Below, piece by piece: positions 18,608 through 50,931 of a stretch of DNA of 57,816 nt. Position 1 is the stretch's first letter. Each line of letters begins with the position of its first letter. The position numbers were made by a program, and so were the translations under genes. The notes below the pieces were generated by a model. It saw only the letters and a list, made by a program, of their open reading frames with translations. It was not told the origin of the DNA and searched no databases. The stretch lies in contig CAYTSD010000004.1 in the NCBI GenBank assembly GCA_964440495.1, positions 1 through 57,816 on the forward strand, read 5' to 3'. The stretch comes from an uncultured Nitrososphaeria archaeon (GTDB lineage: Archaea; Thermoproteota; Nitrososphaeria_A; Caldarchaeales; Wolframiiraptoraceae).

Positions 18608-18616
18608 TTATATATA
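18608..18616 (+). promoter_or_regulatory. TATA box of the ubiquitin-cascade operon (putative)
   Basis: TTATATATA lies 40 nt upstream of ATG 18656. A GGAGAGGAG/GAGGT purine stretch lies between it and the start codon. Confidence 0.4.
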
Positions 18617-18655
18617 GTTCCCAACCTTCTTGGAGAGGAGCTGGGGTTTAGAGGT

Positions 18656-18916: not shown

Positions 18917-19376
18917 ACTCCTCTGGCACAAGAGGCTGGCAATAGAGTATAAGCTAGTCCATGAGCATGAACCCTTATTCGACGTTGTAGCAGGAGATCT
19001 AACCCATTATAAAGGCGTACTTGTCGGTACAGGGATCTACGAGGGTGGATACTTCAAGGTGGAGATACTTCTTCCTCGGAGCTTTCCCTACGTGCCGCCT
19101 GACGTGGTCTGGTGGACGAGGATATGGCATCCCAACTTCACCGACGAGGTTCCAGCACGTATCTGCGAGTCCATATTTAAGGATGATTGGTCTCCAGCCC
19201 TCCACGTGATAACGGTCATCGAGGCTCTCAGAAACCTCCTTAACAACCCGAATCCAGACGACCCCCTAAACACTATAGCGGCCATGGAGATGAAGTTTAG
19301 ACCAGATATATTTGAGGCGAGGGTTAGACAGTATATAGAGCTCTTCGCAAGACCCGACCAAGCCCTCACAAAGTAG
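18897..19376 (+). CDS. ubiquitin-conjugating enzyme E2 (UBC fold)
   Basis: HPNF motif followed by the catalytic Cys context PARICESIFKDDWSPAL. I prefer ATG 18897 over the TTG 18882 in the track. Overlaps the tail of the Ub gene. Confidence 0.8.
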   Translation: MQAELPELLWHKRLAIEYKLVHEHEPLFDVVAGDLTHYKGVLVGTGIYEGGYFKVEILLPRSFPYVPPDVVWWTRIWHPNFTDEVPARICESIFKDDWSPALHVITVIEALRNLLNNPNPDDPLNTIAAMEMKFRPDIFEARVRQYIELFARPDQALTK

Positions 19377-19418
19377 TATAATAGTAGGTCTCTTTGATAA
19401 GAGAGTGGTTAATGGGTA

Positions 19419-20621: not shown

Positions 20622-20659
20622 GTTCGAGAAGCATAGCCGAGGGAGGGTGACGCAGGAGA

Positions 20660-20923
20660 TTGCCTAAGAGAATAGTTCTCGGCAAGCCGGTCAGCGTGGG
20701 GTTCTGGGATCCCTGGTCGGTTGAGGAGCCTGTTAGAAAGCCGAGGCCGAGGGAGGAGCCCCGTGAAGAGAACTTCTGCGTAATCTGCCTCTCCAAGATA
20801 GAGGAGGGGGCTCCGACGATCCAGTGCCCGCACTGTGGAGCAATCGGGCATAGAAGCTGCTTTGAGGACTGGGTTAGGCTTAAGGGGACCTGCCCTCTCT
20901 GTAAGAGACCTATAACGCTTTAG
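20660..20923 (+). CDS. small RING-type zinc finger protein (putative E3)
   Basis: CVIC-x12-CPHCGAIGHRSC-x3-W-x7-CPLC gives eight Cys/His ligands in cross-brace-compatible spacing. TTG start preceded by GGAG. Confidence 0.8.
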   Translation: MPKRIVLGKPVSVGFWDPWSVEEPVRKPRPREEPREENFCVICLSKIEEGAPTIQCPHCGAIGHRSCFEDWVRLKGTCPLCKRPITL

Positions 20924-20974
20924 ACATCTTTAAGGTATAGTTTTTAAGCCTTATCTAAGGAGAATCTGCAAGGG

Positions 20975-21373
20975 GTGAAGCGTCTGGAGGAGAGAAGAGA
21001 GGAGGAGAAGGAAGAGGAGGAAGAAGAAGGAGTCGTTGAGATAGAGTTAAGCTATCTAGATACCCCTGGGGGTAAGAAGGTTGCAACCCTAGAGTCGGCT
21101 AAGAGTTTAGCCGACGCCATAGTGGTTTTAGATGACGCTGTATCAGAGTTGGAGGAGAAGGTGGGAAGGTTGGAGAGAGGTGAAGGGCTCGTGAAGGTGG
21201 TTGAAGAGTTCTCAGCAAGGATTACAGCAATCGAGAAGACGTTAAGTGACTTGGAGAGGAATCTTCAGACAGAGTTGGGAGACCTATCTGACAAGCTCTC
21301 AGCGCTGATAGACGCCTTCCACGAGCTGGCTGAAAGGGTTCAGAGAATAGAGGATGAGATTTCTAGGGGCTGA
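20975..21373 (+). CDS. acidic coiled-coil protein, unknown function
   Basis: Poly-Glu N-terminus, then heptad-like Leu/Glu repeats. GTG start. No family recognised. Confidence 0.4.
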   Translation: MKRLEERREEEKEEEEEEGVVEIELSYLDTPGGKKVATLESAKSLADAIVVLDDAVSELEEKVGRLERGEGLVKVVEEFSARITAIEKTLSDLERNLQTELGDLSDKLSALIDAFHELAERVQRIEDEISRG

Positions 21374-22199
21374 GGAAAGCCCTCCTCATATCGGCCAGAG
21401 TCTTCTCAAGGCTCGCACGCTTCTCCTCAAGCTCCTCTATCTCGGACTCCAGCCTCCTCTTCCTCTCACTTAGAGAGGTTAACTCGCCCTTAAGCTGAGT
21501 TAGCTTACGTTCAAGCTTCGCAGCCTCCTCTTCCTTCTCCCTCATCCTCGCAAGCGAGTCCTTCAGCTCTGCTTCACGTCTCACCAGTCTTTCCAGCCGT
21601 ATCTCCCTCAGCTTGAAGTCCCTGAGCATCTCCTTCATCATGTCTGAGAGCCTGTTCCGAGCCTCTTCAAGCCCTGCCAGATAGCGTTGCTGAAGCTCAG
21701 CTATCCTGTTCTCCAGCTCGGTCTTCCTCTCCTCAAGCTCTCTGACCTCAGCCTCTCTAAGGGTAAGCTTCCTCTCCTTGGCGTCAAGCTCCTCCTTCCA
21801 CTTCCTTATCTCCTCCTTCATAACCGCTAGCTCGGTCTTCTCCTTTAGAACCCGGTTAATCTCCTGTCTAAGGGATTCACGCTCCTTGCTCAGCGACTCA
21901 ACGATGTCCTTTATCCCCTCCTGAACCGAGAGAAGCATGTTCTCATAGTAGCGTACTATCGTCAACTCTTCAGCGACTTTCTCAGCCTTCCCAATGAAGG
22001 AGTTTAGCTTTGACTCCCAGCGCTGAGGTTGAGAGGCGACCGTGGATAAGAGTTCTAGAGCCCTGTCAAGCTCGTTGTTTATCTTAGAGAGCCTGTTATC
22101 CAAGCCCTCTGTCAGATTCTTCTCTATCTCGGTTAGTCTCCCGCTAAGCCTCTCCTCAAGCTCTAGAAGCTTATCTTTCTTGCTTGTGAAGGGACTCAT
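21363..22199 (-). CDS. long coiled-coil protein, unknown function
   Basis: 278 aa, almost entirely heptad-rich E/K/R/L sequence. TATA-like TTTTTATAG on the minus strand about 25-32 nt upstream of ATG 22199. Confidence 0.45.
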   Translation of the reverse strand: MSPFTSKKDKLLELEERLSGRLTEIEKNLTEGLDNRLSKINNELDRALELLSTVASQPQRWESKLNSFIGKAEKVAEELTIVRYYENMLLSVQEGIKDIVESLSKERESLRQEINRVLKEKTELAVMKEEIRKWKEELDAKERKLTLREAEVRELEERKTELENRIAELQQRYLAGLEEARNRLSDMMKEMLRDFKLREIRLERLVRREAELKDSLARMREKEEEAAKLERKLTQLKGELTSLSERKRRLESEIEELEEKRASLEKTLADMRRAFLSP

Positions 22200-22335
22200 C
22201 TCTGCCTAGGCTAATTGATACGGCTATAAAAAGGTGTTTCGGCATATCTCGAAAATCAACTCTTATAAAAGAGCCTGGGCTAAAGGGTTTAGAAGAGGTG
22301 CGGATGCAGGAGTGATAGTTGGTCAAGAAGAGGTT

Positions 22336-23043
22336 ATGGCCAGACTTTATAAGATAGGCGCAGGAGCAGCAGCGGTAGGCGCAATCCATATCCTAACACT
22401 GCTTCTAAGCTGGTATATCGAGAGCAATGGGAAAGTCGTTGCAGCCTTGGTTGGATATGTTTTCCCGGAGTCGCTTATATTCTCGGTGGCAGGCGGACTG
22501 ATGGCTGGAATAGGCCTCCTCATAGCATATGTGGTTAAACGGGTAATCGTCACCAAACTCGTGATAGGTGCTCTAGCAGTTATTGGAGGTGTTCTCGCAC
22601 TCTTCTCCCCCCTCTACATATACTTCTACCACATTCTTGAGCTAGGGATACGCGGGTACCCCGATATAGGTTTCTTCGCAGCAATCTTCACAGGAATAGT
22701 CCAGATAGGTGTGGGCGCTCTCGCTCTCCTCACGCCGACGAAGAGGGAGATAATACCCACAGCAGCTCCAGAGATTACGCCTACACCAGCCTTCGAGCCA
22801 GCGCCTACACCCCCTCCACCGACAACGCCTAGAACGCGGAGACCAAGGGGGCCTGCCACCGCAAGAATCGTACCCGCAACCGACATAGAAGAGGCCACCT
22901 GCAGCATATGTTATGAGCCTGTTAAGCCTGAGGATGCTGTGAAGTGTAGCGCCTGTGGGGCTATCTTCCATAGAGGATGCATCGATACATGGGTAAGCCT
23001 GAATGGGACATGCCCTGTCTGTAAGGCCGTGATAGTGGGCTAA
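22336..23043 (+). CDS. polytopic membrane protein with C-terminal RING-type zinc finger (paralog of the small RING protein)
   Basis: Several hydrophobic segments, then a Pro/Thr-rich linker (TPTPAFEPAPTPPPPTTP), then CSIC-x11-CSACGAIFHRGC-x3-W-x7-CPVC. Start set at ATG 22336 (GAGGT upstream). The track gives GTG 22234. Confidence 0.7.
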   Translation: MARLYKIGAGAAAVGAIHILTLLLSWYIESNGKVVAALVGYVFPESLIFSVAGGLMAGIGLLIAYVVKRVIVTKLVIGALAVIGGVLALFSPLYIYFYHILELGIRGYPDIGFFAAIFTGIVQIGVGALALLTPTKREIIPTAAPEITPTPAFEPAPTPPPPTTPRTRRPRGPATARIVPATDIEEATCSICYEPVKPEDAVKCSACGAIFHRGCIDTWVSLNGTCPVCKAVIVG

Positions 23044-34101: not shown

Positions 34102-35145
34102 ATGAGTGGAGAAGGATATAGGAGGAGGATTCAGCTTACTGGAAGTTCAACTCTCGTCGTCTCGCTTCCAAAGGATTGGGTGAGGCTGGCTGGACTTCAT
34201 AAGGGTAGCTACATTAGACTCATACCACGTCAGGGCTTGTCACTGCTTCTAGTTCCGGAAAGAGAGGGGGAGAGAAAGCTTAAGGAGATAAGCCTGACAG
34301 CAGGTGAGAAAGCAGGGTCTGAGGAGATTGTTAGGAAGCTTATCTCAATGTATCAGGCGGGCTTCGATGTAATTAAGGTGGGCTTCAAGTCTCCTAGACC
34401 CGAGATGAAGGCCGTCATAAAAGACACTGTAAGAAGGAGGCTTATGGGGATGGAGATTCTAAGCGAGTCGGCTTCAGAGATACTTATACAATGCTTCACC
34501 CGCCACATGGAGTTTCCTCTACAGGATGCGCTCAGGAGAGCTGAAGAGATAGCGTCATCGATGCTTGAAGACGCTGTGGAAGCACTCCTAGGCAGAGATC
34601 ATCAACTCGCCGCAGAAGTCTTCCAGAGAGATGATGAAGTAGATAGACTCTTCCACTACATGATAAGACAGCTGAACGTGGCTTTAGAGAGGCCTGAGGC
34701 TTTAGAGGACCTTGGACTAATAAACCCGATGGAGTTTCTCAGCTATGCTTCGATAGCTAAAGCCGTTGAGAGGGTTGGAGACCATGCGGCGAGCATAGCC
34801 ATCATAGCAGAGGAAATAGATGGAAAACTCGTAGACAACTTGGCCGCAGAGATAGCTACCATGAATAGGGAGGCGGTTAAAGCCTTTAAGAGTGCTCTCA
34901 ACTCCGTTGAGAAAAGAGACGGAGAACTTGCAAACAATATAGTTGATGGAGTCGGGGAGATAAGGAGAAAGCAGTATGAGAGAGCTGTTGAGAAGGTTAT
35001 GAAGTGGAAGACGAGTCCTAGAAATGCCTCACTCATAAAAACAGTCCTAGAAGACCTAATGCGTGTAGCGGAATACAGCGCCGATATAGCCGAACAAGCA
35101 ATCCTCCTCTCAATAATTGTGGCGGAAAGCCCTCTAAAGAAATAA
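34102..35145 (+). CDS. phosphate uptake regulator (N-terminal AbrB/SpoVT DNA-binding domain fused to PhoU repeats)
   Basis: RRRIQLTGSSTLVVSLPKDWV (AbrB-like) followed by two PhoU repeats (ERVGDHAASIA, AEYSADIAE). Divergent from pstS. Confidence 0.7.
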   Translation: MSGEGYRRRIQLTGSSTLVVSLPKDWVRLAGLHKGSYIRLIPRQGLSLLLVPEREGERKLKEISLTAGEKAGSEEIVRKLISMYQAGFDVIKVGFKSPRPEMKAVIKDTVRRRLMGMEILSESASEILIQCFTRHMEFPLQDALRRAEEIASSMLEDAVEALLGRDHQLAAEVFQRDDEVDRLFHYMIRQLNVALERPEALEDLGLINPMEFLSYASIAKAVERVGDHAASIAIIAEEIDGKLVDNLAAEIATMNREAVKAFKSALNSVEKRDGELANNIVDGVGEIRRKQYERAVEKVMKWKTSPRNASLIKTVLEDLMRVAEYSADIAEQAILLSIIVAESPLKK

Positions 35146-39266: not shown

Positions 39267-40385
39267 ATGAGAGAATTGGAGAGGCTTGCGGCTGAACGTG
39301 CGCGGGACGCTGTTCAGCTCGATAAGAAGGGTCTAAAGAAGGAGGCTGCGCGAAGATACCGTGAGGTTATCAGGCTTCTCTCGAGAATAATTGAGCTGAC
39401 CGAGGACCCGATTATGAGGGGGGTCTACGAGGAGAAGCTGAAGCAGTATAAGAATAGGCTTGAAGTCCTCGGGGAGGCTGAAGCAGAAGGAGAGCCATCG
39501 GTGAAGACAAAGACCGTGAAGACATCCGATGAACCCTACATCCTCAAGGAGCCGCTCCAAGTCACATGGGATGATATAATAGGATTAGAGGATGCGAAGA
39601 AGGCTGTTAAGGAGAGTATAATCTACCCCACGAAGAGGCCAGACCTTTTCCCGCTAGGCTGGCCACGTGGAATCCTGCTTTTCGGCCCACCCGGATGTGG
39701 GAAGACTATGCTTGCAGCCGCCGTTGCTAGGGAGATTGACGCAGTCTTCATGCAGGTTGACGCCTCGATAATAATGTCTAAGTGGCTTGGAGAGTCTGAA
39801 AGGAATGTTGCAAACATCTTCAAAGTTGCGAGAAAATATGAGTCTGAGGGTAAGCCTGTGATAATATTCATCGATGAAGCCGATTCCCTTACAGCCTATC
39901 GGTGGAATGAGGTTGGAGGAGAGGCGAGGGCGAGAAACCAATTGATAAAGGAGATGGATGGACTCCTAGACAAGGGTAAGAAGAGCTACATCTACGTTCT
40001 CGCAGCCACGAATAAGCCCTGGCTTCTCGACGAACCATTCATAAGAAGATTTCAGAGAAGAATCTTCATAGGTTTACCTGACTATGAGACGAGGCTTAAG
40101 ATGCTTGAATACTATACGAGTAGACTTGAACTAGATGAGGATGTCAAGTTAAGTGAGATTGCGAGGATGACCGACGGATACTCCGGAGCAGATATACATG
40201 ACATTTGCATGGAGGTTCAGATGAAGGTTGTAAGCGAGTTCTTCGAGAAGGGAAGCGGCGAGGATAATAAGCCCAGGAAGATAAGCATGTCAGACTTCAT
40301 CGATGTAATCAAGAGAAGGAAGCCTAGCGTCGATCTAGATACTATGAGGAAGATGCTTGAATGGGCTTCAAGATTCGGAGCCTAA
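39267..40385 (+). CDS. cdvC: Vps4-like AAA+ ATPase CdvC (N-terminal MIT domain)
   Basis: MIT-like three-helix N-terminus, Walker A GPPGCGKT, Walker B IIFIDEADS, and ATNKPWLLDEPFIRRF second region of homology. Confidence 0.85.
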   Translation: MRELERLAAERARDAVQLDKKGLKKEAARRYREVIRLLSRIIELTEDPIMRGVYEEKLKQYKNRLEVLGEAEAEGEPSVKTKTVKTSDEPYILKEPLQVTWDDIIGLEDAKKAVKESIIYPTKRPDLFPLGWPRGILLFGPPGCGKTMLAAAVAREIDAVFMQVDASIIMSKWLGESERNVANIFKVARKYESEGKPVIIFIDEADSLTAYRWNEVGGEARARNQLIKEMDGLLDKGKKSYIYVLAATNKPWLLDEPFIRRFQRRIFIGLPDYETRLKMLEYYTSRLELDEDVKLSEIARMTDGYSGADIHDICMEVQMKVVSEFFEKGSGEDNKPRKISMSDFIDVIKRRKPSVDLDTMRKMLEWASRFGA

Positions 40386-41171
40386 AGCCTCCCTTCCAAC
40401 AAGCTCTATCACGCCCTTCCTCTCCAACTCCTCTAAAATCTCCTTGACCTCTTCAACATCTATCCCAAGCTCCTTCGAGCATTCATAGACGTCTATCTCA
40501 TCCTTCTTTGAGACGTAGGAGTAAACCTTTCTCTCTTTCTCGGTCAGCTGAGGCACATCTGGGAAGGAGCTCTTAACCTTCTCCGCAGCCTTCTCCTGCG
40601 CCTCCCTAAGAATCTTGACAGCTTCCTCGTCAAGCTCACTCATAGTTATCGGCGACAGCTCACCTTGAGTTGAGGATGATGTAAACTCTTCGATGCATTC
40701 AGCGAGCTCGTGGAGGCTTTGAGCTGCTTCTGGGACCACTCCTGCAACCTCGTCTTCAACCTCTGTGAGGAGTGAGAGCAAGGGGACGACTAAACCTATG
40801 ACTTCACTTATCTCAAGGATTGTCTCAAGCCTAAGCTTAACCTGCTCCAAGACAAGCTGCGTCTTCATGACCATGCTTGCAAGCCTTCTAACCTCGGCTA
40901 TCTCCTCAGCATAGATTGCGGCTCTCCCCTCATCCTTATTCACTAAGGCGTCGATAACCCTCTCGAAGTACTCCCTGCTTCGGGAGACCATCTCGGCATA
41001 CTTGTATCTAAGTTTCTCGATTTGAGCGTTTAAAGCAGAGAGAGAAGCCTCCAACCTACGTTTAAGCTCTTCCCTCGCCTCCTCATCCATGAATGGGTCT
41101 CCACCCAGCTCTCCGTCTCCTATCATTAACCTAGCCGAGGCTGAGAGCCGAAGCTTTATACCCTTTACCAA
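40368..41171 (-). CDS. cdvB: ESCRT-III-like protein CdvB with C-terminal winged-helix domain
   Basis: Snf7-like helical hairpin core followed by YSYVSKKDEIDVYECSKELGIDVEEVKEILEELERKGVIEL. The track start is TTG 41171. ATG 41126 and ATG 41090 are alternatives. Confidence 0.7.
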   Translation of the reverse strand: MVKGIKLRLSASARLMIGDGELGGDPFMDEEAREELKRRLEASLSALNAQIEKLRYKYAEMVSRSREYFERVIDALVNKDEGRAAIYAEEIAEVRRLASMVMKTQLVLEQVKLRLETILEISEVIGLVVPLLSLLTEVEDEVAGVVPEAAQSLHELAECIEEFTSSSTQGELSPITMSELDEEAVKILREAQEKAAEKVKSSFPDVPQLTEKERKVYSYVSKKDEIDVYECSKELGIDVEEVKEILEELERKGVIELVGREALGSES

Positions 41172-41339: not shown

Positions 41340-43160
41340 ATGTGCGGTATAACTGGATGCGCGGCCAAGGGGATTCAAGTCTCACCTCTCCTCCACAAGT
41401 CTCTTAAGAGATTAGAGTATAGAGGTTATGACTCAGCAGGCATAGCAACAGTCTATAATGGGAAGATCTACGTCAAGAAAGATGTAGGCAAGATAGATGA
41501 GATACATAAAAGACTAAACCTAGACGACCTTCCTGGATCTATTGGGATAGCTCATACAAGGTGGGCGACGCATGGAGCGCCGTCCAAGGTTAATGCTCAT
41601 CCTCACATAGATTGTAAGGGGGAGCTGGCGATAGTTCATAATGGGGTCATAGAGAACTTTCTTGAACTGAAGCAGGAGCTCCTCGATAGGAAGCATGAAT
41701 TTGCCTCGAGAACAGATACTGAGGTAATCGCTCACCTGATAGAGGAGTATCTAAAGATGGGTAGAGGTTTCTTCGACGCGGTTAGGGAGGCTGTTAGAAG
41801 ACTTAAGGGAAGCTATGCAATAGCAGTAATCTACTCTAAAGAGCCTGACAAGATAGTTGTGGCTAGGCAGGAGTCTCCGTTAGTTATAGGGCTTGGAGAT
41901 GGAAAGAATTTTGCTGCAAGCGATGTAGCGGCGTTCATAGAGTATACGAATAAGGCTATCTTTCTTCAGAATGGTGAGATGGCTGAGGTCACGGCTGACA
42001 AAGTTAAACTGGTTAGAATAGATACTGGTGTGGAGTTTGAGAGGAAGCCGACGACTCTTGAATGGAGTATCGAGATGGCTGAGAAAGGCGGCTACCCGCA
42101 CTTCATGTTAAAGGAGATTCATGAGCAGCCTCACAGTCTCAGAGAGGCCTTGAAAGCCCAGCAACAATATATCGACCTCCTCGCAGAGTTCCTCGATAGA
42201 AGTAGGGACACCTTGCTCCTCGCAGCTGGAACATCCTACAACGCCTGCGTCGCCGCATCATATCTCTTCTCAAAGATTGCTCGTCTAACAACTTATCCAG
42301 TGATAGCCTCAGAATATATTGAGAACTATGGAGCTTCATCGGGTGTCGACACGGTTATTCTCGCTGTAAGCCAGTCTGGTGAGACGGCGGATGTCTTAAA
42401 CGCCTTGGAGTATGCGAGGATGAGGGCTGCTACAATACTTGGATTGACGAATGTTGTAGGCTCGACCCTTACCAGGGTTGCGAGAGCCTATGTTCTCCAG
42501 AACTCGGGCCCCGAGATAGGGGTTGCAGCAAGCAAGACCTTTACGGCTCAGCTAATGGTTCTCTCAATGCTTGGTCTTAGGCTTGCTAGGAAGAGGGGGA
42601 AGCTGGCCCAGTATGAGATAGATGAGCTTAAGGAGGAGCTGCGTAGAGTTCCAGAACTCGTTGAGAAAGCTTTGAAAATCTCTGAGGAGCCTATAAAGAA
42701 GCTTGCCAAAGAGCTTGCAAACTCTTCCAGCATCTTCTTCCTTGGAAGAGGGATAAACTATGCAACAGCCCTCGAGGCCAGGCTCAAAATCATGGAGCTA
42801 TCCTACATACCATGTATAGCTTATCCAGCGGGTGAAAGCAAGCATGGCCCGATAAGCGTTATCGAGAAGGATTATCCAGTATTCTTCATCGCTCCAAACG
42901 ACTCCACCAGGAAGCATGTTATTGGAAACATTATGGAGATGAAGGCTAGGGGTGCCAAGATATACTGTGTTGGAACCGAGGGTGATGAGGAACTCAAGAA
43001 GCAGTGTGATTGGTTCCTTGGTCTGCCGAAGGTTCACGAGATTCTAAGCCCAATAGTCTATGTGATACCCTTCCAGCTTCTCGCATACTACATGGCTGTT
43101 GAAAAGGGATATAATCCCGACATGCCGCGGAATTTGGCGAAGTCTGTAACCGTTCTTTAG
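41340..43160 (+). CDS. glmS: glutamine--fructose-6-phosphate aminotransferase
   Basis: N-terminal MCGI nucleophile, two SIS domains, and C-terminal ...RNLAKSVTV-type end. Confidence 0.9.
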   Translation: MCGITGCAAKGIQVSPLLHKSLKRLEYRGYDSAGIATVYNGKIYVKKDVGKIDEIHKRLNLDDLPGSIGIAHTRWATHGAPSKVNAHPHIDCKGELAIVHNGVIENFLELKQELLDRKHEFASRTDTEVIAHLIEEYLKMGRGFFDAVREAVRRLKGSYAIAVIYSKEPDKIVVARQESPLVIGLGDGKNFAASDVAAFIEYTNKAIFLQNGEMAEVTADKVKLVRIDTGVEFERKPTTLEWSIEMAEKGGYPHFMLKEIHEQPHSLREALKAQQQYIDLLAEFLDRSRDTLLLAAGTSYNACVAASYLFSKIARLTTYPVIASEYIENYGASSGVDTVILAVSQSGETADVLNALEYARMRAATILGLTNVVGSTLTRVARAYVLQNSGPEIGVAASKTFTAQLMVLSMLGLRLARKRGKLAQYEIDELKEELRRVPELVEKALKISEEPIKKLAKELANSSSIFFLGRGINYATALEARLKIMELSYIPCIAYPAGESKHGPISVIEKDYPVFFIAPNDSTRKHVIGNIMEMKARGAKIYCVGTEGDEELKKQCDWFLGLPKVHEILSPIVYVIPFQLLAYYMAVEKGYNPDMPRNLAKSVTVL

Positions 43161-44605
43161 ACCCTTTCCCTAAGCTTGAAGAAGAGCCTCGTCTCACCCA
43201 TAGTCTTCAGAGGCATCTCCCTAACCTTCACAACGATAGGCAGGTCGTTCACCATCCTACCTATCATTAGGCAGTATCTTGGGGGGAGCGCCTTCGCAAT
43301 TCTCTTGGCGGTCTCAGAGTCTACTCTAGAAGCCTTCGAGATGTATTCTAGGTCTGATTCATTCGTGAAGTTGAAGAGGAAGATGTTGTCAGCCTGTCTA
43401 TAAACGGTCTCGGGTATCATGTCAGGCTGATTTGTGACGAAGATTGGGAATAGGCCTGTATGCCTCATCCTCGTAACAAGGTCATCCCAGTAGGTTTCCC
43501 TTAGATAGAGGTGAGCCTCCTCAGCGACGAGAAAAATCGGGTCTACTCTACCTTCTCTTAGAAGACTTGACAGCTTGCTCAGAAGATACTCCACTATTAT
43601 TCTTCTGCCGCTTGGAATGGTCTTCGAGAGGTTGACAACGATTATTCCTCCATCCTCCATATTGTTTAGGGTTTCCTCCAAGTTTGTTGCCTCTTCTTCG
43701 CTGAAGAATTGAGTTGAGTTGAGGCTCAGTAATCTGCTCATCAACGCTTCTCTAACCGATTCATGCATCTGAGCTCTTCCAGCGGCCTCTATTAACCCCC
43801 GTAGGCTCACCCTTCCCTTAACTCTCTTCACGGTTCCCCATAGTCGGATGAATTCTCTGAGGCTTGCGGCTGGAGTGTTTAGGACATGTTGAAGTATGTC
43901 GAGTATTGTTCCAAGCCCTGCGTCTTCTATGGATGCCTTGAAGTTTTCACCTGGGTTTAGAACTAGATGCTTGTCGGCGACCCCGCTTCTACCTCCGTCC
44001 AATCTTGTTGAGAGCCCAACATATTCTCCGTTAATGTCCAGTACAACTATCTTTGCACCGTATTCTGCTAGGGAGGTTACGAGAAGCTTTGCTAGATGAG
44101 ATTTACCGGTCTCCTTCTTCCCAGTGATTATTGTCAGTCTACCGTCGAAGGCCTCGGCGTTCACGGTCAGTATCCCGCCCATACACTCACCTATCACTAT
44201 AGGTCTTCTCCCACCGATGCTTGAGAGCTCAGCTATCAGCTCTGGGGATGCATGCTCTATCCTGGAGCCGAGTTTTGAGGGAAGCCAGAGGAGGTCGCTG
44301 CGCAATCCATCTCCATCGACTACTCCCCGGAGCTTCGCAACAACTATTCGGGCATCTCTAAGACCGGCTACAAGGGAGCCTACACCATAGGGGTCTATCA
44401 ACCTTGTTGAAAGCTCCTCGGAGCCAAGCTCTCTTAGAGCATCCTCAAGCCCCCCTGGAAGCTCGGCGTAGTCTACGTCTATGACTTGGAGGAGGAGACG
44501 TCTCCTACCATCCACTGCTTGGAGGTAGTCCCCACGCTGGAGGGGCTTCTCATCTGGGGCGGCGAGGAGCTCAACCAGGTCACCGCTCTTGGATAGAAGC
44601 TTCAT
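43157..44605 (-). CDS. HerA/FtsK-superfamily (DUF87-type) ATPase, divergent HerA-like
   Basis: N-terminal barrel-like segment (GDYLQAVDGRRRLLLQVIDV), Walker A ITGKKETGKSHLAK, Walker B IFLVAEEAHLY, and VTNQPDMIPETVYRQADNIFLFNF (HerA-type sensor region). ATGA overlap with the upstream NurA-like gene. Confidence 0.7.
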   Translation of the reverse strand: MKLLSKSGDLVELLAAPDEKPLQRGDYLQAVDGRRRLLLQVIDVDYAELPGGLEDALRELGSEELSTRLIDPYGVGSLVAGLRDARIVVAKLRGVVDGDGLRSDLLWLPSKLGSRIEHASPELIAELSSIGGRRPIVIGECMGGILTVNAEAFDGRLTIITGKKETGKSHLAKLLVTSLAEYGAKIVVLDINGEYVGLSTRLDGGRSGVADKHLVLNPGENFKASIEDAGLGTILDILQHVLNTPAASLREFIRLWGTVKRVKGRVSLRGLIEAAGRAQMHESVREALMSRLLSLNSTQFFSEEEATNLEETLNNMEDGGIIVVNLSKTIPSGRRIIVEYLLSKLSSLLREGRVDPIFLVAEEAHLYLRETYWDDLVTRMRHTGLFPIFVTNQPDMIPETVYRQADNIFLFNFTNESDLEYISKASRVDSETAKRIAKALPPRYCLMIGRMVNDLPIVVKVREMPLKTMGETRLFFKLRERV

Positions 44606-45645
44606 CTAAACACCTCCCCGTCCACCGGGTTGAAGAGGAGGTCGCGAATCGAGGTTGGGTGGATTATCTCGACGCTCCTCCTGCGAAGCATGGCTTGGAT
44701 TGCCAGTACGTCGAGCTTGCTGAAGGTGCAGTAGTCGTGGGCTAGGATGAGGGTCTCAGGGTAGCCATACACTAGGGCATCGCTTCGGAGGAGGCTTCCG
44801 AAGACCCTTTCCGCGGAGGCGGTTATGCTGGCGTCAACCCTGAACCCGCTGCATCCGGGGCAGAGCCTGGCCAAGAATATGTCTCCTAGGACTCGAACCC
44901 TCATCTCAGCGCTCCTGACAGCTTGGGTGACCTCGACTAGGTAGGGTGGCTCAGCCTCGGCGCCCAAGGTTGTTAGAAGCTCACCCCAAACCCTTAGAAC
45001 ACTAGTCTTAGAGAAGGCGAGAATATCGTTTCCCCGAGGCCTGGCCTTCTCGAGAATCCTGCCTACTAGGTAGAGGGGGTTGTCTAGGGGGCCTGCGGAG
45101 AGGGAGCCGTCGAAGAGGAGTATGCTGTCGGTATAGTGTTCGGCGGCGTACTCCTGCATCCGTTTCTCGATTAGGCCTGCCATCACCCTCTGGATGGAGT
45201 TGTAGAGCTGGTAGTTTCCCCAGGCTTCGAGGGGGGCGGCGCCGAGAACCGAGGCGAGAAGCTCTCCCATGTTCTCGTAGCTCACATAGAAGACCAGTGG
45301 GCCGAGGACCTCGACAGCTGTTTTGGAGCGGTCTCGGGTTACGATGGCCCCCCTAACGGCTATGACTACGCCTCTCGACCCTGCCGCAACCCTTATCGAG
45401 GAGGTGTCTATGGCCACGACAGGGCGTCTAGGCGCCTCAAGCTCAGGTTGAATTATCTCAACGGCTCCTTCTCCCCGGCCCTCCAGAAAGGCTATACAGC
45501 ACTCATCTTGAACAATATTCTCAACACCACCAGCGTAAAGCCTGAGGCCGTCGACCTTCTCTAGGCTTCGGAGACTGCTCTCAAGGAAAGCTTTAAAATA
45601 GCTTTGTGAGGCTTCTATTTGGGGTTGTTGGCTTTGGAGGGTCAT
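44602..45645 (-). CDS. NurA-like nuclease domain protein
   Basis: NurA-type motif series: VVAIDTSS (motif I Asp), LLFDGSLS, AFSKTSVL, and YGYPETLILAHDY. Confidence 0.6.
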   Translation of the reverse strand: MTLQSQQPQIEASQSYFKAFLESSLRSLEKVDGLRLYAGGVENIVQDECCIAFLEGRGEGAVEIIQPELEAPRRPVVAIDTSSIRVAAGSRGVVIAVRGAIVTRDRSKTAVEVLGPLVFYVSYENMGELLASVLGAAPLEAWGNYQLYNSIQRVMAGLIEKRMQEYAAEHYTDSILLFDGSLSAGPLDNPLYLVGRILEKARPRGNDILAFSKTSVLRVWGELLTTLGAEAEPPYLVEVTQAVRSAEMRVRVLGDIFLARLCPGCSGFRVDASITASAERVFGSLLRSDALVYGYPETLILAHDYCTFSKLDVLAIQAMLRRRSVEIIHPTSIRDLLFNPVDGEVFR

Positions 45646-45681
45646 GCCGCAGTTTCCCCTTGTTTATTGGGGTTTGCTGTG

Positions 45682-45690
45682 CTTATAAAT
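45682..45690 (+). promoter_or_regulatory. TATA box for the 45717 gene (leaderless-type spacing)
   Basis: CTTATAAAT ends 27 nt before ATG 45717. Lies in the 71-bp divergent spacer shared with the NurA-like gene. Confidence 0.4.
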
Positions 45691-45716
45691 GTTGCTCAAC
45701 TTGAGCATGATGAAAA

Positions 45717-46136
45717 ATGAACGAGCAGGAAAAAATCAAGGTTGAGGTCACGATAGGGCCTGCCACGGTCAGGGTTGAGGCTCCACCCGATAAGTTGGAG
45801 GAGGCTTTGAGGCAGGTTGTCTCGGCTCTTAGGGCCGCCCTCCCCCAGTTGATGGTTGAGGAAGAGCGGAGGGAGAGGGTTAGGAGGAGACCTCAGCCCA
45901 CATGCGCATCTCTTCTCCGCCAACTCATAGAGGAGGGGTGGTTTGATAGGCCTAGAAGCCTCTCGGAGACCACGCAAGAGCTTGCTAGAAGAGGCTACAA
46001 CTATGACTCAACCGCGGTCTCCCACACCCTCCTAGACCTGGTTAGGGAGAGGGTTCTCGTTAGGGAAGGCTCGCCCAGACGCTACGTGTATTACAGGCCT
46101 GAGGGCAGGGTGGCTGAGCGGGAGGAGCGGGTCTAA
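45717..46136 (+). CDS. small winged-helix protein, paralog family member 1 (unknown function)
   Basis: N-terminal KIKVEVTIGPATVRVEAPPDKLEEALRQVVSAL motif shared with the next three genes. C-terminal wHTH-like RSLSETTQELARRGYNYDSTAVSHTLLDLVRERVLVREGSPRRYVYY. Confidence 0.5.
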   Translation: MNEQEKIKVEVTIGPATVRVEAPPDKLEEALRQVVSALRAALPQLMVEEERRERVRRRPQPTCASLLRQLIEEGWFDRPRSLSETTQELARRGYNYDSTAVSHTLLDLVRERVLVREGSPRRYVYYRPEGRVAEREERV

Positions 46137-46633
46137 GGCTTCTCACCAGTCTGGCCATACTTCTCGAGCACACGCTTTATCCCAAGCTGGGTTATGGTGT
46201 AGTCGCCTCTATCCAGCCTCCTAAGCATCCCACGTTGAACAAGCTCGGACAGCCTGCCTGACACGGTCTTCTCGCTCTTGGAGAGGCTTCGGCTAAGCTC
46301 CGAGAGGTTCACCGTCGGGCTCTCCCTCCTACCGAGGCTATGCTCGAGATGGCTTCGGAGGGCTAGGAGGAGGACTGCGTCCGTGACTGGGAGGTCGTCG
46401 AGGTTCTGGAGGAAGAAGAGGCCCTCGCTCTCCTCGTAGGCTATGAGGCCGCCCAAGCTCTCAAGAACCTCTTGGAGGCCGACGCTGTAGGCTATCTTCT
46501 TGGCAAGCGAGTAGGCTGGGATAACCTTCTCGAGGAAGGCGACTACCTGTCGATAGACCTCCTCGGGCGCTCCAGAGAACTCCGCCTCAAGCTCCCCATA
46601 CCTTATGCTGACCCTAAGCTCATCTTCCTTCAT
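46133..46633 (-). CDS. small winged-helix protein, paralog family member 2 (unknown function)
   Basis: ELRVSIRYGELEAEFSGAPEEVYRQVVAFLEKV N-terminal motif. C-terminal wHTH VNLSELSRSLSKSEKTVSGRLSELVQRGMLRRLDRGDYTIT. Confidence 0.55.
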   Translation of the reverse strand: MKEDELRVSIRYGELEAEFSGAPEEVYRQVVAFLEKVIPAYSLAKKIAYSVGLQEVLESLGGLIAYEESEGLFFLQNLDDLPVTDAVLLLALRSHLEHSLGRRESPTVNLSELSRSLSKSEKTVSGRLSELVQRGMLRRLDRGDYTITQLGIKRVLEKYGQTGEKP

Positions 46634-47106
46634 AGGCTCTCACCGAAGAGCTCTCGGAGCGAGGCTGGTGTAAAGGTGTAGAGCCCCTCCCCCTGTTTCA
46701 CCACTAGGCCTGCTCTCCTAAGCTCGCTCAGCCTTGCCCGGACAACCCTCTCATTAAGCCCCGAGTAGGCTGCAACCTCCTTGGGTGTAAGGGTGTCTTT
46801 CTCGAGGAGGCCTAGAGCCTTCCCCACATAGACGGCGGCCAGGCAGAGGAGTATCTTACGCTTAGCGTCGAGCTCCTTGAGTACCGTCACTCTACCCTCC
46901 CTTATCTCAACCATGCCTGCAAGCCTCTCGGCAAGCTTCTGGACATCGATTGCGCCGACAAGCTTCTTCACCGCCTCTAGGGCTGGATAGAGTTGGGAGA
47001 GATACCTGTTGACGCTTGCCCAGACCTCTTGGTATCCTCCCTCAAACTCTGCCTCCGTCCCTCCATGCCTTATAGTGATCTTGAGAGGTTCTCCGCTCAT
47101 CTTCAC
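46630..47106 (-). CDS. small winged-helix protein, paralog family member 3 (unknown function)
   Basis: PLKITIRHGGTEAEFEGGYQEVWASVNRYLSQL N-terminal motif. C-terminal wHTH LTPKEVAAYSGLNERVVRARLSELRRAGLVVKQGEGLYTFT. ATGA overlaps on both sides. Confidence 0.55.
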   Translation of the reverse strand: MKMSGEPLKITIRHGGTEAEFEGGYQEVWASVNRYLSQLYPALEAVKKLVGAIDVQKLAERLAGMVEIREGRVTVLKELDAKRKILLCLAAVYVGKALGLLEKDTLTPKEVAAYSGLNERVVRARLSELRRAGLVVKQGEGLYTFTPASLRELFGESL

Positions 47107-47552
47107 GCCTCCCTGAACCCGTTCTCAACGAACCTAATTCCCTTCCGCAGAATCCTGAAGACTTTCTTCCCGTTGACTCTACCCGCATCCTCGAACAGCC
47201 TATCTCTGACAAGGTCTCCTACAACGTCTCTAGGGTTGCTTGGGGTCGGCCACCTCGCTTTCCGATAGTATTCCTCGAAGTCGTCGTAGCCTACGTTTCT
47301 ACCCTCCCATTTATAAAGGTAGTAGGCTATAGTTAGGAACCGCTGTGGATGAGATTTTGGGTCAAGCCTGTCCGCGAACTCTATGAAGGAGGGCTTCTCC
47401 CCGGCTTCTCCTCTGCCTCCCTCCATGGCTGAAAGCCTCTCCAACATGGCTTCAAGCCAGCTTAGGTCGCTTAGCTTCGCCTCAACAAACTCTCTGTCAC
47501 CCTCAACCTCGACCTCAACGCCATTCGATAACACTCTAACCCTGTATGACAT
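47103..47552 (-). CDS. small protein, paralog family member 4 (divergent; unknown function)
   Basis: YRVRVLSNGVEVEVEGDREFVEAKLSDLSWLEAML N-terminal motif. The C-terminal half (FLTIAYYLYKWEG...DVVGDLVRDRLFEDAGRVNGKKVFRILRKG) is wHTH-like but divergent. First gene of the three-gene minus-strand operon. Confidence 0.45.
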   Translation of the reverse strand: MSYRVRVLSNGVEVEVEGDREFVEAKLSDLSWLEAMLERLSAMEGGRGEAGEKPSFIEFADRLDPKSHPQRFLTIAYYLYKWEGRNVGYDDFEEYYRKARWPTPSNPRDVVGDLVRDRLFEDAGRVNGKKVFRILRKGIRFVENGFREA

Positions 47553-47587
47553 GTGTGCGCTCCCGCCTGATTTAGGCTAGGAGATTG

Positions 47588-47595
47588 TTATAAGC
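47588..47595 (-). promoter_or_regulatory. TATA box of the three-gene paralog operon (putative)
   Basis: Minus-strand CTTATAAC lies about 36 nt upstream of ATG 47552. Confidence 0.35.
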
Positions 47596-47677
47596 CTTCC
47601 ACAGGGGATTGAAAGTGGGAAAATGGCTTAGGCTTCGGGTTTAGGGCACTCTAAGAGCACTGAAATTAGGTGGGCGG

Positions 47678-49588
47678 CTAATCGGAGGTTTGGCCAGAGC
47701 TGAGATGCTTCTTAACAAGGCTGTAGAGCCTCGCTCCGTCAACCTTCCCACGATACTCCTTCATAAGCTCCCCCATAATCACCGAAGCCGCCTTACCGGG
47801 ATTCCTTTTCACAAGTTCTCCATGCTTCCTGAGAAGAGCGGTAACCCGAGCCTCAACATCCTCCATCCTCACAGGCCTGAGGCCTAGAGCCTCAACCGCC
47901 TCTTCAACGGTCTTCTCAGGATTCTCAGCCAGCCAAGTAAACAGTTTCTCGGCAGCCTCCTTCGCGAGCTCTCCCCGTCCCACCAGCCTGAAAAACCCTA
48001 GGAGGTGTTGATCACTTATCCTCTCAACCTTAACGCCCTCTCTTCGGAGGCTTTTCAGGAGCTCCGTGAGGGTTGAGGCCACAACGCTTGCGGCTACACC
48101 TGTCTCCCCGACAATCCGCTCAAACAGCTCAACGCGCTCGGAGTCTATCAGCTCGTCGGCAATCTGCCTACTAAGCCCATACTTCTCAGCAAGCCTCCCA
48201 GCAACCTCGTCTAGAGTTGGTGGAAGCCTCCTCCTAAGCTCCTCCAAGTAGCTCTCGGAGACAGGGTAAGGCGGGAGATCGGTCTCAGGATACATCCTTG
48301 CGGCTCCAGGTCTAGGTCTTAGGTAGACTGTTGTCCCGTCTGGGCGTGCGCCACGTGTCTCGGATGGGACTCCGCGTAGAGCCTCGGCCGCCCGCTCCCT
48401 CACATACTCCAACGCTTCTCTAGCCCTCTGCTCCTCGTCTGCGACAAAGACTACTGCGTCCTCCTCACCAGCCTCCATCTCACGTCTCAATGCCATAACC
48501 TCCTCAGCGCTGATTCCATAGCCTGGAAGCTCGTCGGTGTGGAAGATTCCCTGAACCTCGGCCCATGCACGCGCCCTTCCCGCAAACTCTGCGCCAAGCC
48601 TGACCCCTGGAGCCGCCTCCAGACCTACTAGGCCTCCGAAGCCTGGGAGCTTGAGGGCTATAACCCTCCCCCCAGCCTTGAGACCCCTCTTCAACACCTT
48701 CGACCCAGTCTTCTCGAATAGGTGTGTAACATCCTTGACTTGGGCTGAGGTTACATCTTCTTCGCTTACCCCACGTTTCCTGAGCTCGTCTCTTATTTTT
48801 AGGAGGTGGAGTTGGCGCTTAACCTCTAGTTCAACAACCTTTGGGAGTAGGCCTAGCTCTTGGACACCCTTAATCTCAACCAGTGCTCCATCCCTAATCG
48901 AGATGTTCAGGTCTTGTCTGACGGTTCCTATTCCTCTCTTCACCTTTCCCGTGGCGCGGAGCAGCCTCCCGATAGCGTAGGCGACCTCAAGCGTCTCCCT
49001 GGGAGAGTTTATCGCAGGGGCTGTCGAGACCTCTATTAGGGGGACTCCAAGCCTGCTTAAGTCGTAGTGAACCTCGTGAGGTTTATGCTCAAGTATTCTA
49101 GCCGCGTCCTCCTCCAAGGTTATCGTCTGTATAGGGATGGTCTTTCCATGAACCTCTATCCTCCCGCCTAGAGCAACTACGCATGTGCGTTGGAAGCCTG
49201 TGGTGTTGGAGCCGTCGATAACTATCTTCCTCATAACGTGTATCTCGTCGACCGGTGTAGCGTTCATTAGGAGGGCTATGGTTAAGGCGACCTCCACTGC
49301 TTCTCTGTTTAGGTCGTGAGGCGGCTCCTCATCCATCTCAACCAGGCAGGTTGACGCAGTGTTTGCGTGATAGACTATCTTCTTACGTTTCTTTGCCTCG
49401 AAGATTGCGGCTGGGTCTACTTCACCTAGCTCGCTCTGGGCTTCCCTAAGCCACCTAACGAATCTAATCTCCCTCCCATCTGTCCTAGAGTCGGTTGGGC
49501 AGTCGCAGAAGAGCTTAGACTTTGTGTCGAGTTGGCGGTGGATTTCGAGGCCTACCTTCAGCCCAAGCTTCTGGTAGTCGAGGGTCAC
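47678..49588 (-). CDS. gatE: Glu-tRNA(Gln) amidotransferase subunit E
   Basis: GLKVGLEIHRQL N-terminus, GatB/E core, and a C-terminal YqeY-like tail. 4-nt overlap with gatD. Confidence 0.9.
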   Translation of the reverse strand: MTLDYQKLGLKVGLEIHRQLDTKSKLFCDCPTDSRTDGREIRFVRWLREAQSELGEVDPAAIFEAKKRKKIVYHANTASTCLVEMDEEPPHDLNREAVEVALTIALLMNATPVDEIHVMRKIVIDGSNTTGFQRTCVVALGGRIEVHGKTIPIQTITLEEDAARILEHKPHEVHYDLSRLGVPLIEVSTAPAINSPRETLEVAYAIGRLLRATGKVKRGIGTVRQDLNISIRDGALVEIKGVQELGLLPKVVELEVKRQLHLLKIRDELRKRGVSEEDVTSAQVKDVTHLFEKTGSKVLKRGLKAGGRVIALKLPGFGGLVGLEAAPGVRLGAEFAGRARAWAEVQGIFHTDELPGYGISAEEVMALRREMEAGEEDAVVFVADEEQRAREALEYVRERAAEALRGVPSETRGARPDGTTVYLRPRPGAARMYPETDLPPYPVSESYLEELRRRLPPTLDEVAGRLAEKYGLSRQIADELIDSERVELFERIVGETGVAASVVASTLTELLKSLRREGVKVERISDQHLLGFFRLVGRGELAKEAAEKLFTWLAENPEKTVEEAVEALGLRPVRMEDVEARVTALLRKHGELVKRNPGKAASVIMGELMKEYRGKVDGARLYSLVKKHLSSGQTSD

Positions 49589-50931
49589 AGCGCCTCAGCC
49601 TCCATTCTAGGCATATTCCTCCCACCAATCTCACCTGCAATCGGCGTGAGCATGAGACGCTTAACCTCATCTGGGTCGCTTGTCTGGGCGAGAGCCCACG
49701 AGAGCTTGACGTAGGCTGTCTCTGGAAGCATGTTGTCGAGAGGCGTTACACCCGCTTTCAAGAGGTCTCGGCCGTTGTCATAGACCCTCATATTCACCCT
49801 ACCCCAGATGCACTGGGATGTCATCCCAACGAAGACCCCCCTCTCCACAAGCCTTCTCACAACTGGTATGAGCCTTGAAGCGACGTGCCCAAGCCCTGTC
49901 CCCTCTAGGATTACTCCCCTAACATGCTTCTCCGTGACTGCCTCAAGAATCTCTGGAGGCATTCCAGGATAGAATTTCACCAGGGCTGCTTCATCGGAGA
50001 ATCCGGGTTTGAAGGTGTAGCCGTCTCCTCCACGTGGGTTCAACCCCTCCTCCCTAACCCGTATATCACCCATCTCGACATAGGCTATCGGACTGGCGTT
50101 CACAGACTGGAAGGCATCCCTACTGCTCGTATGGAGCTTCCTAACCCTCGTCCCCCTATGGACAGCTATCAGGGTATCCGAGTGCCATGCATGCATCGTT
50201 ACACAGACCTCGGCGAATGGGGCGTGGCCTGCAACCTTCACAGCGGCTATCAGATTCGTCGCCGCATCGCTTGAAGGCCTATCGGAGGAGCGTTGAGCGC
50301 CTACGAAGACCACTGGAACCGGGGGCTTTTGGAGGGCGAAGCTCAGGGCTGCGGCCGAGTATCCCATGGTGTCGGTTCCATGCGCTATTACGACGCCGTC
50401 AACCCCTTTTCTTATCAGCTCATCGGCCCTCACAGCCATCTCGTTCCAATGGCTTGGCGTAAGGTTCTCGCTGAAGATTGAGAAGAGTATCTCTGCGTCG
50501 AGGGCAGCTATCTCGGCGAGCTCAGGCACGATTGAGAGGAGGTCCTCGGCTGTGAGAGCAGGCCTAACACCCCCAGTCCTATAATCTATTCTACTCGCTA
50601 TCGTCCCACCCGTACTCATTATCGTTACCTTTGGTAGGCCTGGTCTTGACGGAGGTCTTGGAGGTGGGACGAACCTTGGCTTCACGGCCTCAGCGACCCG
50701 TCTAACCTTTACATCTCCATGAACCCTTATCCCGAGATTGTAGCCATTTGGAAGCTTTAGGACTATGTAGTCTGGCTCGGCGAGCTCGTAGCGTGCCATC
50801 AGAATCCCTCTATAGATGCGGCCATCGACCTCAACCTCGACCTCGTCGCCGACGCTTACACCAGAGGACTCCAGAACCACCCTAATTCTCCCAACGTATC
50901 CCTGAAGCCTCTCATCTCCAGACATTTCCAA
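49585..50931 (-). CDS. gatD: Glu-tRNA(Gln) amidotransferase subunit D (asparaginase-like)
   Basis: STGGTIASRIDYRTGG and HGTDTMGYSAA asparaginase motifs. Archaea-specific partner of GatE. Confidence 0.9.
   Translation of the reverse strand: MEMSGDERLQGYVGRIRVVLESSGVSVGDEVEVEVDGRIYRGILMARYELAEPDYIVLKLPNGYNLGIRVHGDVKVRRVAEAVKPRFVPPPRPPSRPGLPKVTIMSTGGTIASRIDYRTGGVRPALTAEDLLSIVPELAEIAALDAEILFSIFSENLTPSHWNEMAVRADELIRKGVDGVVIAHGTDTMGYSAAALSFALQKPPVPVVFVGAQRSSDRPSSDAATNLIAAVKVAGHAPFAEVCVTMHAWHSDTLIAVHRGTRVRKLHTSSRDAFQSVNASPIAYVEMGDIRVREEGLNPRGGDGYTFKPGFSDEAALVKFYPGMPPEILEAVTEKHVRGVILEGTGLGHVASRLIPVVRRLVERGVFVGMTSQCIWGRVNMRVYDNGRDLLKAGVTPLDNMLPETAYVKLSWALAQTSDPDEVKRLMLTPIAGEIGGRNMPRMEAEAL

Follow-up and report, generated by a model that had tools for sequence, protein, structure and literature searches.

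In a 57,816-nucleotide (nt) stretch of DNA from an uncultured archaeon of the order Caldarchaeales (formerly Aigarchaeota) that is close to Wolframiiraptor (contig CAYTSD010000004.1; "the window" below always means this whole stretch), a NurA-like nuclease gene and a HerA-like ATPase gene form a block with 4 small genes, here called S1 to S4. We think that this block probably encodes a vertically inherited HerA-NurA end-resection machine together with small winged-helix regulators that are dedicated to it. HerA-NurA is the end-resection machine of archaea, and what is known about it comes almost wholly from Sulfolobales and Thermococcales. New is a dedicated family of small proteins with a predicted beta-hairpin and winged helix that, together with a conserved putative operator, has been kept with one clade of HerA-NurA in Caldarchaeales, Bathyarchaeia, and some other Thermoproteota. 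An earlier interpretation of the block made from the DNA letters alone (the sequence-only reading) had called its six-gene composition undescribed, and we likewise found no account of this gene set in the literature that we searched; the canonical complex, paralogous pairs of Thermoproteales, and the regulator Csa3a are covered there, and nothing was found on the small proteins.

The association of the small genes with this particular pair is seen from both sides. Scanning one genome per species with an alignment of the HerA-like protein yielded at least 524 genomes with a relative, and the closest 80 all belong to Caldarchaeales or Bathyarchaeia, with HerA-like orthologs that are 46-73% identical across these loci. 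There, nurA always precedes herA, and a divergently oriented S1 adjoins nurA in 67 of the 69 loci with enough sequence, while a 10-kb surrounding contained at least one gene of the S2/S3 type at 39 of 52 loci and at least two at 34 of 52. The reverse test, a metagenome scan that started from S1, recovered the NurA-like gene in 70/70 loci with room on that side (69 by script, the single exception being a coordinate-overlap artifact) and the HerA-like gene in all 56 loci with more flanking sequence. The small genes are thus conserved partners of this NurA/HerA subtype and not, as the sequence-only reading had allowed for, ordinary MarR-type regulators scattered around the genome.

Each genome has 2 to 4 of the small paralogs, and the make-up of their operon follows the lineage: S1'-S2'-S2/3 in Bathyarchaeia, S4-S3-S2 in Wolframiiraptor-like archaea, and S3-S2 in Caldarchaeum. 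Upstream of this operon, gatD-gatE is found in 30 loci of Caldarchaeales and Bathyarchaeia (window positions 47678-50931; L004-L083), so that both classes have the order gatD-gatE / small-gene operon / S1 / nurA-herA in common. Part of the linkage, including the gatDE neighborhood, may be retained ancestral gene order. In 2 remote Thermoproteota loci (L091 and L093; HerA 34-35% identical), S2'-S2/3-nurA-herA are nonetheless encoded on the same strand with overlaps or less than 60 bp between genes. The paralogy of S1 with S1'/S4 and these same-strand clusters in remote lineages are independent arguments for a small family that belongs with nurA-herA. The linkage is ancient.

The second line of evidence comes from the spacer between S1 and nurA, which measures 71 bp when read from the sequence, as had been noted before. 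It contains a perfect palindrome that ends 10 nt before the S1 start codon (Table 1). In an alignment of these spacers, the palindrome is conserved across both classes while the remaining spacer varies, which marks S1 as a likely sequence-specific autoregulator. Allowing up to 2 mismatches, the palindrome has a single match in the 57.8-kb window (0.16 expected), and it is present in 18/18 Caldarchaeales loci, once in each and always in the S1/nurA spacer; the Caldarchaeum version at the same position reads TTGCGCAA-GA-TGAGCAA. About 40 Bathyarchaeia carry a variant, TTGTGCAT-N7-ATGCACAA, directly after their equivalent of the S1 TATA box (TATTTAA), and at least 35 of its 38 matches in 1.4 Mb of scanned sequence fall into the S1/nurA spacer. 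Common to Caldarchaeales and Bathyarchaeia is the half-site TGTTGYKCA directly after the TATA box. On the other side of the spacer, a TTTATT/ATTATA element holds the position of the nurA TATA box in the aligned spacers of related loci.

Because the conserved palindrome overlies the transcription start of S1, the classic layout of an archaeal repressor, we infer that S1 is a sequence-specific autoregulator of its own promoter and the protein that would bind the palindrome. This idea fits with residues that are invariant among 29 homologs, namely T99, A100, and H103, which the S1 model places in its third helix (98-110), and R116 and R121, which it places around the wing strands (115-126). With the palindrome positioned upstream of the probable nurA TATA box by around 30 bp, S1 might also act on nurA-herA, be it by activation or by co-repression. 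In the Thermoproteota lineage of L091 and L093, which lacks S1, the S2'-S2/3-nurA-herA clusters have palindromes of the GTTACGTAAC type (L091:3040-3082 and L093:5080-5124) that follow the TATA box and precede the first start codon. Their position at the promoter of clusters led by S2' suggests that proteins of the S family control nurA-herA there.

Control of the small-gene operon by S1 was also considered and discarded, as the promoter of the S4/S1' operon has no S1-type palindrome; unlike the S1 operator, the promoter region of S4-S3-S2 keeps conserved elements of its own. Another candidate site, an inverted repeat of the Bathyarchaeia type inside mre11 of L064, is probably there by chance because it lies within the sequence coding for the DLHLG motif. 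As a side observation and weak lead, an A[CT]TTTC element is found 53-64 nt before the S4 start codon (window positions 47610-47625 on the minus strand and S4 promoters in L004-L021), and its conservation is confined to the Wolframiiraptor-like clade. Its form is that of ANTTTC, the Orc1-2 DNA-damage motif of Sulfolobales (PMC6061795).

Both enzymes of the block look like genuine, though divergent, members of their families and enzymatically active, because they pass the family cut-offs and keep the catalytic motifs. The NurA-like protein reaches 24 bits with Pfam NurA (PF09376; cut-off 21), a family matched by 13 of 15 members of the NurA-like family (best 9.6e-08), and all 3 motifs of its profile align to S. 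solfataricus NurA (2ygk; E 0.0016). Its motif set consists of an aspartate (motif I), a glutamate, the aspartate in DGSL, and GYP..L..AH; D80, D179 (in DGSL), and Y295-P296-E297..A302-H303 do not vary, with E160 conserved to at least 90%. The HerA-like protein matches the HerA central domain (Pfam DUF87/PF01935) with 49.3 bits (8.8e-13; cut-off 23.2), and among solved structures its family profile finds S. solfataricus HerA (4d2i) first, with E 9e-14 across residues 118-470, ahead of the anti-phage HerAs; residues 1-117 do not align to 4d2i. Walker A (G162 K163 K164 .. G167 K168 S169), Walker B (hhhhEEAH; E362 E363 A364 H365), and also later Arg/Gln motifs show no variation across 11 orthologs, and we regard the protein, judged by its sequence, as a divergent but intact HerA-family member.

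At the same time, the HerA-like protein scores far below the NCBIfam equivalog cut-offs, with 36 bits for HerA_Thermprot (cut-off 800), 44 bits for HerA_antiphage (cut-off 800), and 36-44 bits when CedD is included (cut-offs 600-800). By these scores it is no equivalog of HerA_Thermprot or HerA_antiphage and forms a distinct clade. In an exhaustive phmmer search the clade proved small and discrete, with 577 representatives at an E limit of 1e-3, and 71 when this limit was 1e-30. The pair shares families and intact Walker A/B and NurA D-E-D-H motifs with canonical HerA-NurA of S. solfataricus (herA-mre11-rad50-nurA operon), and its genes are likewise adjacent and in the window also translationally coupled. 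It differs from the canonical system in being very divergent in sequence, in the order nurA-herA, and in the company of 2 to 4 small winged-helix genes, which we have not found described for the canonical operon.

The functional assignment rests foremost on gene neighborhoods. In 3 Bathyarchaeia that have the small genes (L063, L064, and L053), mre11 (E about 1e-33) and rad50 (1e-50 to 5e-55) directly follow nurA-herA, and in L063 the genes S2'-S2-S1-nurA-herA-mre11-rad50 are all on one strand. This adjacency is the best evidence that the pair would function in the resection of double-strand-break ends. A rough distance tree made by neighbor joining places the HerAs with small genes in one clade, and its nearest neighbor includes a pair linked to Mre11-Rad50. 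Because mre11-rad50 adjoins orthologs of the pair and occurs in the neighboring HerA clade, the pair is most likely the ordinary end-resection machine of its lineage. The possibility conceded by the sequence-only reading that this could be the only HerA/NurA of its genome, with Mre11 and Rad50 simply encoded elsewhere, is partly borne out by these neighborhoods.

In mechanistic terms, the HerA-like protein would form a ring ATPase that pumps double-stranded DNA, and the translationally coupled NurA-like protein, a predicted nuclease of the RNase H fold, would degrade the DNA fed to it, so that the two would resect DNA ends for recombinational repair with a Mre11-Rad50 partner encoded outside the window in the same organism. 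S1 would bind the palindrome over its own transcription start, repress itself, and probably tune nurA-herA. S2, S3, and S4 could be paralogous co-regulators or partner subunits and may pair with S1 via the N-terminal module of the small proteins, a beta-hairpin with helix that probably serves oligomerization. The small proteins might moreover touch HerA-NurA physically and would respond to a signal. One further step, which we put forward only as a tentative and rather doubtful idea, is that the small family controls or joins the double-strand-break response of Bathyarchaeia, Caldarchaeales, and related Thermoproteota: S1 and its paralogs would hetero-oligomerize through the beta-hairpin module, detect damage or free DNA ends, let go of the operator, and possibly ride on HerA-NurA. 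If true, the damage-sensing small family would be a lineage-specific counterpart of bacterial LexA or of Orc1-2/TFB3 in Sulfolobales.

Several observations weigh against an end-resection machine with dedicated regulators. Neither Mre11 nor Rad50 is encoded in the window, just as the sequence-only reading had said that they are not beside the pair, and mre11-rad50 adjoins only 3 of about 81 orthologous loci. With 36 bits for S. solfataricus HerA and 31 bits for anti-phage HerAs, the HerA-like protein stands hardly nearer to the former, and an N-terminal HAS-barrel domain is not detectable by sequence (no Pfam match at E up to 1). In Pyrobaculum, nurA-herA pairs number 3 or more and differ in their roles (PMC3396285), and the genomes considered here may likewise have a second, canonical pair elsewhere; remote members of the broad HerA clade are found in clustered regularly interspaced short palindromic repeats (CRISPR) or restriction-modification contexts (L088 and L095). 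As to the small genes, those of the S2/S3 type are missing from the surrounding 10 kb at 13 of 52 loci, and some Caldarchaeales (L084-L087) keep gatD-gatE-S4-S3 together with S1-nurA-herA elsewhere; because these 2 groups can part, the link of S3 and S4 to the machine appears looser than that of S1. Finally, 4 paralogous regulators for a two-gene operon are more than simple regulation requires.

All six open reading frames of the block exist at the positions first proposed for them (Table 1). Of the 3 ATGA overlaps that had been described, those at 44602-44605 and 46630-46633 are present, and the third (47103-47106) reads GTGA; S3 starts with this GTG or with an in-frame ATG two codons inward at 47100. 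S1 and S2 are convergent and overlap by 4 nt (46133-46136). The block lies between glmS and gatE as stated earlier, but gatD-gatE is not a mere flank since in both archaeal classes it belongs, together with the block, to a conserved synteny. With 0.55-0.59, the G+C content of the block is slightly above most of the window and stays equally high on through gatDE.

Table 1. Features of the six-gene block (positions in the window) and loci of remote HerA relatives (positions in the respective locus). aa, amino acids.
Feature	Position	Strand	Remarks
HerA-like ATPase, 482 aa	43157..44605	-	divergent HerA/FtsK-superfamily P-loop translocase
NurA-like nuclease, 347 aa	44602..45645	-	stop overlaps herA start (ATGA)
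Probable nurA-herA TATA box (AATAAA, minus strand)	45663..45668	-	18-23 nt before nurA ATG; putative function
S1 TATA box CTTATAAAT	45682..45690	+	nearly invariant in 14 aligned Caldarchaeales spacers; flanking spacer variable
Perfect palindrome TGCTCAA-C-TTGAGCA	45693..45707		likely operator; between S1 TATA box and S1 start codon
S1, 139 aa	45717..46136	+	N-terminal beta-hairpin and helix, linker, C-terminal winged helix; divergent from nurA; predicted autoregulator
S2, 166 aa	46133..46633	-	N-terminal module and winged helix; paralog of S3
S3, 158 aa	46630..47106	-	N-terminal beta-hairpin and helix, C-terminal winged helix
S4, 149 aa	47103..47552	-	leads the small-protein operon; divergent relative of the S1/S1' subfamily
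S4-S3-S2 operon promoter region	47553..47677	-	TATA box CTTATAAC at 47587-47594, minus strand
L096			HerA 33% identical to window; mre11-like / rad50-like / nurA / herA operon
L088	1-12502		HerA 33%; CRISPR-adjacent nurA-herA pair with HEPN/nucleotidyltransferase pair on one side and Csx1, Csx3, Cas_NE0113, Csa1 on the other
L094 (Helarchaeota)	1-9756		HerA 31%; SMC / MoxR / vWA / nurA / herA cluster
L095 (Nitrososphaerales)	1440-11218		HerA 30%; restriction-modification-adjacent pair with Eco57I-type enzyme, DUF5131, Fic, Nmad3
L092			HerA 29%; beside PolD and Orc1

The small proteins fall into 2 subfamilies, S1/S4 and S2/S3. S2 and S3 are clear paralogs (BLASTP 7e-18; hhalign 99.6%), S1 aligns to the Bathyarchaeia paralog S1' with 98% hhalign probability, and S4 can be aligned with S1' from end to end (92%, E 5e-7, 122 columns), whereas S1-type and S2-type profiles reach only 52-86% with each other. 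The claim that all 4 proteins have a common N-terminal motif is upheld in that each subfamily conserves a hairpin with glycine at the turn, a second strand with E-x-E-x-E-G, and then a helix; true paralogy is graded. In AlphaFold2 (AF2) models, S1 (predicted local distance difference test, pLDDT, 75) has strands at 7-13 and 16-22, a helix at 24-41, and a winged helix at 63-126 (pLDDT about 90), and S3 (pLDDT 85.5) is built in the same way with N-terminal beta-hairpin and helix and C-terminal winged helix. Just as profile searches detected DUF87 and NurA in the 2 enzymes, they found winged helices in S1-S3 and their homologs (Pfam HTH_27, MarR, TrmB, and HTH_5; MarR, IclR, and Csa3 types for S2). 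S4 had no match in Pfam, NCBIfam, PADLOC, or PHROGs and is counted as a winged-helix protein solely via its profile match to S1'; the only orthologs found for it come from the Wolframiiraptor-like clade and L084/L086. S2 has an ortholog at the same position in C. subterraneum (46% identity).

No full-length MarR or ArsR match above the curated cut-off was obtained for the small proteins; nearly all matches cover only the winged helix of around 40-60 residues, and almost all are below cut-off. The N-terminal module corresponds to no Pfam family and no specific solved fold in Foldseek searches with the S1 and S3 models or in profile searches of the Protein Data Bank (PDB), where Foldseek returned only generic PadR/MarR/IclR/IdeR/ArsR winged helices and the S1 and S2/S3 profiles gave nothing significant. 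Homologs of S1 and S3 in the protein collection are unnamed or generically named, and the 87 homologs of S3 have no functional name beyond ArsR-type regulator. A relationship of S2 to Kite/MukE-like proteins was dropped because the underlying Pfam DUF4194 match (1e-3) was seen in only 1 of 28 family members.

The small proteins nevertheless share the C-terminal winged helix of the MarR/ArsR/Csa3 type with the MarR/ArsR repressors and with Csa3a, an S. islandicus activator of cas and DNA-repair genes (PMC5587795), and S1 has a putative operator palindrome over its own promoter like other autoregulated winged-helix factors. They differ in lacking a CARF domain or MarR-type helical dimerization domain, having their own beta-hairpin and helix module instead, and in that several paralogs are kept together. 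With conserved palindromes lying over their promoters, the small proteins have the appearance of transcriptional autoregulators. Among the roles proposed by the sequence-only reading, that as sensors or adaptors of an immune effector has found no support.

A different view of the same proteins as physical subunits or adaptors seems unlikely to us. The beta-hairpin module would then dock the proteins on each other, on the HerA ring, or on the NurA dimer, and their winged helices would load or orient the translocase at particular sites or structures in DNA, much as the winged-helix gamma domain steers FtsK; they could thereby stand in for part of Mre11-Rad50 function. The presence of the N-terminal module in all subfamilies suggests a common docking or oligomerization surface, and the mean identity of S1 (0.50, compared with 0.38 for the NurA-like protein) is unusual for a local regulator. 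An adaptor would also suit the 2 to 4 paralogs per genome, the tight same-strand spacing of S2-type genes with nurA-herA in L091 and L093, and the lack of Mre11-Rad50 at most loci. However, the S1-type palindrome occurs once per locus and at a promoter, as expected of a regulator rather than of a genome-wide loader; S3 and S4 are sometimes encoded away from nurA-herA; and the fold searches yielded only winged helices of ordinary transcription factors. The small genes also do not simply replace Mre11-Rad50, because both are present in L063.

HerA-type ATPases with a partner effector recur in prokaryotic immune systems, and the block had originally been suggested as a candidate defense module in which NurA would be the effector against viruses or plasmids and the winged-helix proteins its sensors or regulators. 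We consider this very improbable. Between loci, the identity of the HerA-like protein tracks that of gatE (Spearman 0.82), with mean identities of 0.595 and 0.608, respectively, so that its evolutionary rate is that of a housekeeping gene, and the closest 80 of the at least 524 genomes with a relative come from only 2 archaeal classes. The flanks of the block are housekeeping genes without a defense island, synteny with gatDE is conserved, and no relatives were found among IMG/VR viral contigs or PLSDB plasmids. Co-variation with gatE and gatDE synteny across Caldarchaeales and Bathyarchaeia also speak against the notion that the block is variably present and point to vertical inheritance; the block is apparently chromosomal and vertically inherited. 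Mre11-Rad50 next to some of the orthologous loci is a further argument against defense.

Similarity to known immune systems does exist at a low level. PADLOC gave partial, sub-threshold matches to mad8 (62.6 bits; 1e-17) and to anti-phage HerA models (at most 43 bits) and nothing for the NurA-like protein or S4, NCBIfam HerA_antiphage matched with 1.5e-11, far below its cut-off, and PHROGs provided generic ATPase and winged-helix similarity only. SIR2-HerA and DUF4297-HerA (together PDB 8j4u/8su9 and 8xau) as well as MADS with mad8 also combine a HerA-type ATPase with an effector enzyme, and the weak similarity to them concerns the C-terminal half of the ATPase. The window block differs from these systems by its far sub-cut-off scores, by NurA in the place of the effector, and by the distribution, synteny, and rate of a core gene, and it belongs to no described defense system. 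In favor of defense, S2 and S3 have winged helices similar to that of Csa3, CRISPR-associated nurA-herA pairs have been documented in Thermoproteales (PMC3396285), and remote clade members lie beside Csx1/Csx3/Csa1 (L088) or Eco57I, Fic, and Nmad3 (L095), the latter in what looks like a defense island by gene content. These relatives, however, fall outside the small-gene clade in the distance tree. The L088 neighborhood is reminiscent of the nurA-csm6-herA CRISPR cluster of Thermoproteales, unlike the small-gene clade with its housekeeping flanks and without cas or csm6 neighbors. A separate observation concerns the Helarchaeota cluster (L094), which combines a SMC_N/AAA_23 protein of 931 aa, an AAA_5 MoxR-like ATPase, a vWA/CobT_C protein, NurA, HerA, and a 378-aa protein and may be a separate, uncharacterized system.

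The sequence-only reading had also left room for chromosome maintenance. A role of this kind other than break repair might be the resolution or segregation of chromosomes or DNA processing at replication termini, with the small proteins as site-specific DNA-binding factors. HerA is one of the pumping ATPases that make up the FtsK-HerA superfamily, the remote relative in L092 lies beside PolD and Orc1, and genes for Vps4/CdvC and a CdvB-like protein are found 2-4 kb away in the window. We nonetheless hold such a role to be highly improbable: the invariant catalytic residues of the NurA-like protein argue for DNA degradation, the loci of C. subterraneum and Bathyarchaeia examined in detail have no Cdv neighborhood, and Mre11-Rad50 is the sole neighborhood link to a known pathway. 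The cell-division pair itself lies beside glmS (39267-41171) and consists of Vps4/CdvC (39267-40385, plus strand) with MIT, AAA, and Vps4_C domains and a CdvB-like coiled-coil protein with C-terminal winged helix (40368-41171, minus strand) that recurs in 18 related loci.

Among the closest known systems are those of Thermoproteales, which keep at least 3 vertically inherited nurA-herA pairs (Bernick et al. 2012, PMC3396285). These paralogous pairs are, like that of the window, divergent and distinct from the reference homologous-recombination pair, and they resemble S. solfataricus HerA about as weakly. Our results suggest that 2 very large uncultured archaeal classes keep a divergent HerA-NurA. 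They also offer a handle on the regulation of DNA-repair genes in these lineages by defining a protein, a site, and a target operon, supply annotations for hundreds of genes labeled "hypothetical protein", and take one candidate, attractive but unsupported, off the list of new defense systems.

Elsewhere in the window (1-57816), no tRNA gene was found and no Rfam family reached its gathering threshold. Positions 16906-23043 hold a eukaryote-like ubiquitin system of the kind known from Aigarchaeota, with a JAB/Rpn11-like protease (17841-18473, minus strand), an E2 (UQ_con; 18882-19376, plus strand), an E1 (ThiF; 19419-20621, plus strand) in which ThiF (15-313) is C-terminally fused to a ubiquitin-family domain (323-382), and a RING-finger protein (22234-23043, plus strand). 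Next to a probable phosphate ABC-transport operon (29.7-34 kb), the gene at 34102-35145 encodes a MazE/AbrB-type N-terminal domain fused to 2 PhoU domains and is probably an ordinary regulator of phosphate uptake.

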